Below, in pieces: positions 11,542 to 11,717 of a stretch of DNA of 22,969 bases (positions are counted from its first letter, which is position 1; each line of letters begins with the position of its first letter). Source of the DNA: a virus (lineage: Duplodnaviria; Heunggongvirae; Uroviricota; Caudoviricetes); the IMG/VR virus record IMGVR_UViG_2548876695_000005, positions 1 to 22,969 of that record, one strand, 5' to 3'. Both the position numbers and the translations under genes were made by a program. A model generated the notes under the pieces. That model worked only from the letters and a program-made list of their open reading frames with translations, had not been told where the DNA came from and made no database searches.

Positions 11542-11602
11542 GCGGCTATTATGGCGGGATTATTTTGCAGAATTGATAATTAAATATCGGTAAAAAGTGG
11601 CT

Positions 11603-11624
11603 ATGTATTTATAACCGAATACAT
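11603..11624. promoter_or_regulatory. dyad-symmetry element ATGTATT-N8-AATACAT in the divergent P/O late promoter region (candidate Ogr-type activator site)
   Basis: Perfect 7-bp inverted repeat at 11603-11609 and 11618-11624 in the 176-bp region between divergent P and O. Reads TGT-N14-ACA, resembling the TGT-N12-ACA element of P2 late promoters but with different spacing. Confidence 0.35.
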
Positions 11625-11717
11625 AAGAAATAAAGCGGTCGCGCTGTTTTAATCAATTCGCAATACTGACCACCACAAACGAATCATTGTTATTAAATTC
11701 ATTATTAAAGGTCAGTT

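Follow-up and report, generated by a model that had tools for sequence, protein, structure and literature searches.

The gap between the divergent terminase and gpO genes of this prophage is likely to be a compact divergent late-promoter region with a central operator, GGnTA-N8-TAnCC, most probably bound by an Ogr-like protein that would activate both promoters; this reading is held here with reasonable, not full, confidence. By sequence comparison, the conserved dyad appears to be the HP1-group variant of the late-promoter operator that is shared by two promoters in phage P2. The first-pass annotation of the window (the whole stretch of DNA analysed, 22 969 nt) had proposed a late activator site in the same gap, with TGT and ACA half-sites spaced by 14 bp. 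It appears to have been right about the region and about the kind of element, a non-canonical dyad overlapping the one described here, and wrong about half-sites and spacing.

Over positions 8348-15608, the window is 97% identical to the Salmonella phages SI7, SW3 and SW5 (Peduoviridae, Irrigatiovirus); by sequence, the prophage classifies as an HP1-group P2-like phage of the genus Irrigatiovirus. The assignment of this genus to the HP1 group of P2-like phages, and not to the P2 subgroup, comes from one comparative study (PMC10612066, Table 2). Gene identities were established by Pfam matches (Table 1), and because these identify the genes on both sides, the earlier placement of the inverted repeat between the divergent late (P/O) operons of a P2-family phage is borne out. 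The terminase-gpO gap itself (11542-11717) is 176 bp long and AT-rich, and an Rfam scan of 11300-11900 gave no match. The gpO start at 11718 is backed by residues 10-17 of the longer form of the protein (W-x-C-I-A-T-S-G), which are invariant in nine homologues; in the SW5 record (L002, MK972713), the start of the gpO scaffold gene is annotated 57 nt too far downstream (12412-12468).

Two further regions of the window are of separate interest. A Mu-like transposable prophage at 15609-22969 interrupts the P2-like prophage in its late tail genes, immediately past gpR; homology to SW5 ends at 15608 and the Mu-like DNA begins with TG. Due to this insertion in its late tail operon, the P2-like prophage is probably defective. 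The replication and ogr-like genes are separated by a cargo region (5010-8347, 31% GC) with a 930-aa open reading frame (5294-8086) that matches PHROG 10073 and PHROG 18005, both of unknown function, and has no significant Pfam match; its counterpart in SW5 consists of a hypothetical gene and a DNA methylase gene (SW5 8010-9041).

Table 1. Features of the prophage late region, of the terminase-gpO gap and of the adjoining Mu-like prophage, in window coordinates
Feature	Position	Strand	Basis or remark
Ogr/Delta zinc-finger protein, 108 aa, last gene of the leftward operon	8349-8675	-	Pfam PF04606
Portal (gpQ-like)	8672-9733	-	Pfam
Large terminase (gpP-like), opening the leftward late operon, ATG at 11541	9730-11541	-	Pfam Terminase_6N/6C/5
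-10-like CATAAT (plus-strand ATTATG)	11548-11553	-	Invariant in 60/60 unique sequences
Conserved block TTAAATATCGG	11581-11591		Conservation; similar to a third half-site (TCGGTA), at ~10 bp from the left one
Conserved putative late operator aGTGGCTA-TGTATTTA-TAACCGAA	11596-11619	No strand	Conservation in relatives
Hypervariable 5-bp patch in the operator spacer, holding the TGT of the palindrome	11604-11608		Conservation profile
Conserved block GAAATAAAGCGG	11627-11638		Predicted ~-47 to -36 of the rightward promoter, an UP-element-like position
-10-like AATACT of the rightward (gpO) late promoter	11662-11667	+	55-60 of 60 per position
gpO scaffold/protease, opening the rightward late operon	11718-12779	+	Pfam Phage_GPO
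Capsid	12808-13830	+	Pfam
Small terminase	13833-14534	+	Pfam
gpL	14577-15110	+	Pfam
gpR	15107-15583	+	Pfam
CI-like repressor of the Mu-like prophage	15965-16663	-	
Ner-like protein of the Mu-like prophage	16758-17024		
MuA-type transposase of the Mu-like prophage	17035-19125		PHROG 310

Conservation of the gap was assessed on equivalents from SW5, 8 prophages in bacterial genomes, 76 IMG/VR contigs and three reference phages (loci are cited by an L number where they have to be told apart). The starts of the terminase and gpO genes could be placed in 70 loci which, together with the window and SW5, gave 72 gaps representing 60 unique sequences, almost all of them 174-177 bp long. The GGnTA-N8-TAnCC core, centred on 11607.5 in the window (core 11599-11616, with GG-n-TA at 11599-11603 and TA-n-CC at 11612-11616), is present in 65/70 related intergenic regions, and the remaining five are one mismatch off. 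It has 0 copies in 469 kb of flanking DNA of the same loci, occurs as a single copy in the window, in the P/O gap only, and is found once per genome in the 30-kb SW5 and the 34-kb VPUSM 8. The operator spacer is fixed at 8 bp and the right side of the operator extends to CCGAA.

The ideal operator is a 24-bp palindrome, TTCGGnTA-N8-TAnCCGAA, whose outer positions are symmetric in the more diverged relatives. It is perfect in the K139-like Vibrio phage VPUSM 8 (TTCGGATA-TAACCCCA-TATCCGAA) and takes the form TTCGGGAA-N8-TATCCGAA in ESSI-2 and L086, TTCGGCTA-N8-TATCCGAA in L066-L070, TTCG-N16-CGAA in L078-L084, where gpO is 30% identical, and TTCGGATA-N8-TATCCG in HP1, which has extra GGATA/TATCC copies phased at 10 bp. 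The operators of VPUSM 8, ESSI-2 and HP1 thus belong to the same family as that of the window, and the HP1 group also shares the -10-N6-ATG arrangement at the terminase gene and the position of the ogr-like gene. However, the window operator is only partly symmetric, with a full right half-site and a left one (aGTGGCTA versus the ideal TTCGGnTA) whose three outermost positions are degenerate, with aGT for TTC; its variable position is C/A, and A/T elsewhere in the group. Over the 60 unique sequences, the right half of the operator and its flank are much better conserved than the left half, and due to this asymmetry, recognition by a monomer, in an asymmetric mode or by another protein is possible. 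A description of this operator was not found in the searchable literature, which lacked the older HP1 and K139 papers, and database records hold only computer-predicted sigma-70 promoters at this gap (P16/P17 in VPUSM 8). As a separate feature, a co-varying inverted repeat is seen between the operator and the rightward -10 (equivalent to ~11620-11645) in a few relatives, CACCCG-N8-CGGGTG in L005 and L006 and GCATCCG-N8-CGGATGC at the same place in L008; the CACCCG/CGGGTG dyad was considered as a hairpin or terminator, and the repeat is missing from the window.

Each side of the operator carries a -10-like hexamer, CATAAT towards the terminase and AATACT towards gpO, both of which retain the A and the T that matter most in the sigma-70 -10 element. 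A consensus scan of 11450-11800 revealed no complete sigma-70 promoter with both hexamers, and neither -10-like hexamer has a -35 partner. The operator centre lies exactly 57 bp from both hexamer centres in 50 of the 60 unique sequences, including the window (57.0/57.0 bp), and within 1-2 bp of this value in 8 more. The same 57/57 spacing is found in the L078 group and in ESSI-2, with 58/57 in VPUSM 8, so that geometry and outer TTCG...CGAA arms are shared with relatives of 30-37% gpO identity, with ESSI-2 and with VPUSM 8. In the Hafnia-type L010 and L047, the distances are 48/47 bp, both sides being shortened together by about one helical turn.

If these hexamers are taken as -10 elements, probable transcription starts and the register of the operator follow. 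CATAAT sits 6 nt upstream of the terminase ATG (CATAAT-N6-ATG), and the leftward start would therefore be the A of this ATG (11541), making the terminase mRNA probably leaderless throughout the phage group. Consistent with this view, no Shine-Dalgarno sequence precedes the terminase ATG; in addition, TATGAT-N6-ATG is found at the terminase gene in VPUSM 8 and the L078 group, and the P2 record, where the pV start is annotated at the first base of gene V, provides a precedent for a leaderless late mRNA. The rightward start is predicted at ~11672-11675 (near 11674), which would place the operator at ~-66.5 of both promoters. In the Hafnia-type relatives, it would be at ~-57, about the P2 position, and since natural variants would sit at ~-66.5 and ~-57, activation that depends on the helical face is suggested.

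Canonical features of P2 are a TGT-N12-ACA element, four late promoters and an Ogr protein with a C-X2-C-X22-C-X4-C motif (PMC3931495). In the P2 RefSeq record, pO and pP start at 3016 and 3127 and have a single activator site (3057-3087) in common; this shared site is at -56 and -55 of the two starts and 46/46 bp from the -10 positions. The window resembles the P2 pP/pO region in its divergent terminase-portal and scaffold-capsid operons, in a single central dyad that spans 18 bp exactly midway between two -10 regions, and in the absence of a usable -35 together with a phage-encoded zinc-finger activator of the Ogr/Delta family (PMC3931495). It differs from P2 in several respects: the half-sites are GGnTA/TAnCC (extended TTCGGnTA) instead of TGT/ACA; the operator is 57 bp from each -10 (probably ~-66.5) instead of 46 bp (~-55.5), that is, about one helical turn further out than the shared P2 site; the leftward mRNA is probably leaderless, compared with a 23-nt leader in P2; the ogr-like gene ends the leftward late operon and is not next to int/att; and there is apparently one late control region per genome, compared with three regions and four promoters in P2. 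Class I activation by CRP provides a functional analogy only, with a dimer-type site upstream of a -35-less promoter. Dependence on the helical face would be expected here as well, and natural variants do move the site by about one helical turn, both sides together; however, protein and DNA motif are unrelated to those of CRP, and the register here would be -55.5/-66.5, as opposed to -61.5/-71.5 for class I CRP sites.

The inverted repeat singled out by the first-pass annotation exists as described, with ATGTATT at 11603-11609 and AATACAT at 11618-11624, hence TGT at 11604-11606, ACA at 11621-11623 and 14 bases between them. The repeat is in fact perfect over 8 bp in each arm (TATGTATT, 11602-11609; AATACATA, 11618-11625), with an N8 spacer and its centre at 11613.5. 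The canonical TGT-N12-ACA is indeed missing from the 176-bp gap of the window, and it was found in none of the 72 related intergenic regions; elsewhere in the window, it has five matches, all within open reading frames. TGT-N14-ACA has 6 occurrences in the window, and the other spacings from N8 to N18 have 1-6. Near other gene starts, TGT-N10 to N16-ACA matched only within open reading frames or in the unrelated Mu-like part, and a second copy of the 22-bp palindrome pattern with <3 mismatches was absent from the window and from SW5, the counts being those expected by chance. Arms of >=8 bp with a spacer of <=16 bp arise by chance in 7% of mononucleotide shuffles and in 13% of first-order Markov simulations, and perfect palindromes with arms of >=7 bp arise in 23-36% of randomised versions of the gap. 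The palindrome is not clearly beyond chance.

That ATGTATT-N8-AATACAT is an Ogr-like activator site, in other words a P2 TGT-N12-ACA re-spaced in co-evolution with the protein, is highly improbable, and this reading appears largely refuted by the comparison with relatives. The repeat is perfect and lies between divergent late operons, it would sit at ~-72.5 and ~-60.5 of starts deduced from the -10-like hexamers only (12 bp apart, roughly on the same helical face), and the CA of its right arm is conserved (52 and 55 of 60). However, only 6/72 related gaps carry the palindrome (4 unique sequences, a Citrobacter prophage among them), and the left arm is missing in the 66 others, including SW5, which differs from the window over 301 bp by three bases that are all in this arm (ATCCAGT versus ATGTATT). 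The T, G and T of 11604-11606 are found in 25, 15 and 9 of the 60 unique sequences, and within the central region, conservation is lowest at 11604-11609 (0.4-1.0 bits per position), between near-invariant flanks. The palindrome is also off-centre, at 63 and 51 bp from the two -10-like hexamers, unlike the exactly central conserved dyad. Finally, TGT and ACA are trinucleotides that carry little information, and a TGT/ACA pair is weak evidence because the sites of P2 are imperfect too, with a pV site that, as annotated, fits either TGT-N14-ACA or TGT-N11-ACA. Of the two findings in relatives that the first-pass annotation named as jointly telling against its site, one holds, as the dyad is not conserved, and the other does not, as no TGT-N12-ACA is found elsewhere in the region. 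The palindrome is best described as a lineage-specific by-product: its right arm forms part of the right-hand flank of the operator, CCGAATACAT, which is conserved, and its left arm is one of the many apparently interchangeable versions of the variable spacer.

This spacer is a subject in itself. Its hypervariable patch (11604-11608) contributes to ~35 spacer variants among the 60 unique sequences. In 13 near-identical gaps, all five columns of the patch segregate with several states, giving six variants, while 22 of the other ~171 columns vary, mostly as singletons; this corresponds to ~9-fold more changes per column in the patch than in the rest of the gap. Between the window and SW5, differences affect 3/5 positions of the patch, 0/180 elsewhere in the gap and 8/300 third-codon positions. 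The patch changes faster than synonymous sites in this sub-clade, but not in all sub-clades, and a lack of constraint alone does not fully explain the variability. Possible sources are multi-base mutation, selection acting on the shape of the spacer, or short-patch conversion among relatives whose flanks are identical. As a separate observation, an exact 12-nt direct repeat, TGGCTATGTATT, occurs at 11598-11609 and 11745-11756, its second copy covering the codons for WLCI, which are conserved residues in gpO; coincidence or a templated change that left this trace could explain the repeat. The idea that the window spacer was copied from the gpO 12-mer is weakened by L004, which has the same spacer and no such repeat in gpO.

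Two selective readings of the spacer have been considered, and both are improbable. According to the first, the TGTAT variant of the window was selected as such, the extra palindrome providing a shifted or extended register, or a site for a second regulator, that tunes late expression. The substitution hotspot just described in near-identical relatives and the occurrence of this variant in the 4 unique sequences, Citrobacter prophage included, would fit. Little credence is given to it in view of the ~35 coexisting variants, among which no preference is seen, of the 7-13% of regions in which such palindromes are expected by chance, and of L019, where the window-type spacer is present but a T-to-C change breaks the right arm; no candidate second regulator was identified either. 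According to the second, of which the same low expectation is held, the patch is actively diversified, by short-patch conversion or selection, as a lineage-specific tuning or addressing element. If true, it may serve to distinguish co-resident P2-like prophages or satellites, or to balance the two divergent promoters, and the window variant, with its second overlapping palindrome shifted by 6 bp, would be one functional allele.

The candidate activator is well defined as a family member. The presence of an Ogr/Delta protein at 8349-8675, recognised in the first-pass annotation, is supported by PF04606 with E=3.5e-16 and by a C-X2-C-X22-C-X4-C motif, seen as CPEC-X22-C-TEVE-C in the translation. 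The protein belongs to PHROG 603 and shares no more than 31% identity with P2 Ogr over 39 residues; a PDB sequence search returned only weak zinc-ribbon matches. Among named phages, the protein is closest to its counterparts in ESSI-2 (~52%) and in K139-like vibriophages (~50%), where the gene is also downstream of the portal gene, as reported for K139 (PMC8537503). L002-L010 keep the gene in this place, with 68-92% identity. The protein had been called unusual, a description that does not hold given the same type and position in K139-like and ESSI-2 phages. The suggested co-variation of palindrome and protein likewise fails: L004 has an identical palindrome and a protein of 86% identity that has residues of the SW5 type, and SW5 lacks the palindrome, yet its protein is 92% identical to that of the window. 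Co-variation of the spacer with the variable Ogr-like residues was also discarded, as L004, L005 and L006 share FVFNATF and have three different spacers.

Two side observations concern this gene. Around residues 48-70, the window protein reads LASLYCGC...FVYSVEFSH, compared with LADLYCAC...FVFNAxFSH in SW5 and in five of seven other relatives (L003-L007); identity to SW5 is only 92% for this protein, against ~97% for the neighbouring DNA and 99% for the P/O gap, which suggests that the activator gene has diverged locally or taken part in recombination. In HP1 (L093, NC_001697), an Ogr-like reading frame (…CKNPLCGHRFVMNMEFSHT…) that is unannotated in the reference record lies downstream of the portal gene, on the minus strand at ~2420-2680; in this strain, a frameshift may affect its 5' part.

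A more serious alternative, though still an unlikely one, is that the operator is real but bound by another protein, such as a host nucleoid or transcription factor, the Cox or C regulators, or the terminase through its helix-turn-helix. The link between the Ogr-like protein and the operator is an indirect one, conservation of the operator is asymmetric, and the terminase does possess an N-terminal helix-turn-helix domain (Terminase_5/HTH_23). Against this, the operator occurs in phages of Enterobacterales, Vibrio and Haemophilus, always with an Ogr-like gene by the portal gene, and its position mirrors the P2 activator site common to pP and pO. An immunity repressor or Cox is disfavoured because the operator is unique per genome and absent from the early control region, and by inspection, the operator is unlike the consensus of CRP, Fis or IHF. 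Binding by the Ogr-like protein is preferred.

In the model that follows from this preference, and by analogy with P2, two -35-less hexamers (CATAAT, 11553-11548 on the minus strand, and AATACT, 11662-11667 on the plus strand) would flank the central, partly symmetric operator, to which the Ogr-like protein would bind, probably as a dimer or a higher oligomer; more than two protomers are hinted at by the half-site-like block TTAAATATCGG, phased at 10 bp, and by the HP1 repeats. From ~-66.5, the protein would bring RNA polymerase to the two -35-less promoters. Since the leftward operon comprises the ogr-like gene besides those for terminase and portal, it would then exert positive feedback on the activator that it encodes, and the rightward operon appears to span all head, lysis and tail genes, since SW5 and VPUSM 8 are without another operator or AT-rich gap. 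In a search for further late promoters in SW5, the remaining gaps (M-L; 19598-19699) were GC-rich and without the operator.

Taking the palindrome as the activator site would have put the wrong bases in that role. For the HP1-group Ogr-like activators (Irrigatiovirus, K139-like phages, ESSI-2 and HP1), a testable operator and promoter geometry is now defined, in a group to which the P2 motif TGT-N12-ACA does not apply and whose annotations consist of computer-predicted sigma-70 promoters only. The advance is incremental and not a new principle. It can be used for prophage annotation and reporter design and in enquiries into how late genes could be cross-activated by satellites or co-resident phages, and it suggests that in these phages, nearly all late genes are under the control of a single divergent region.
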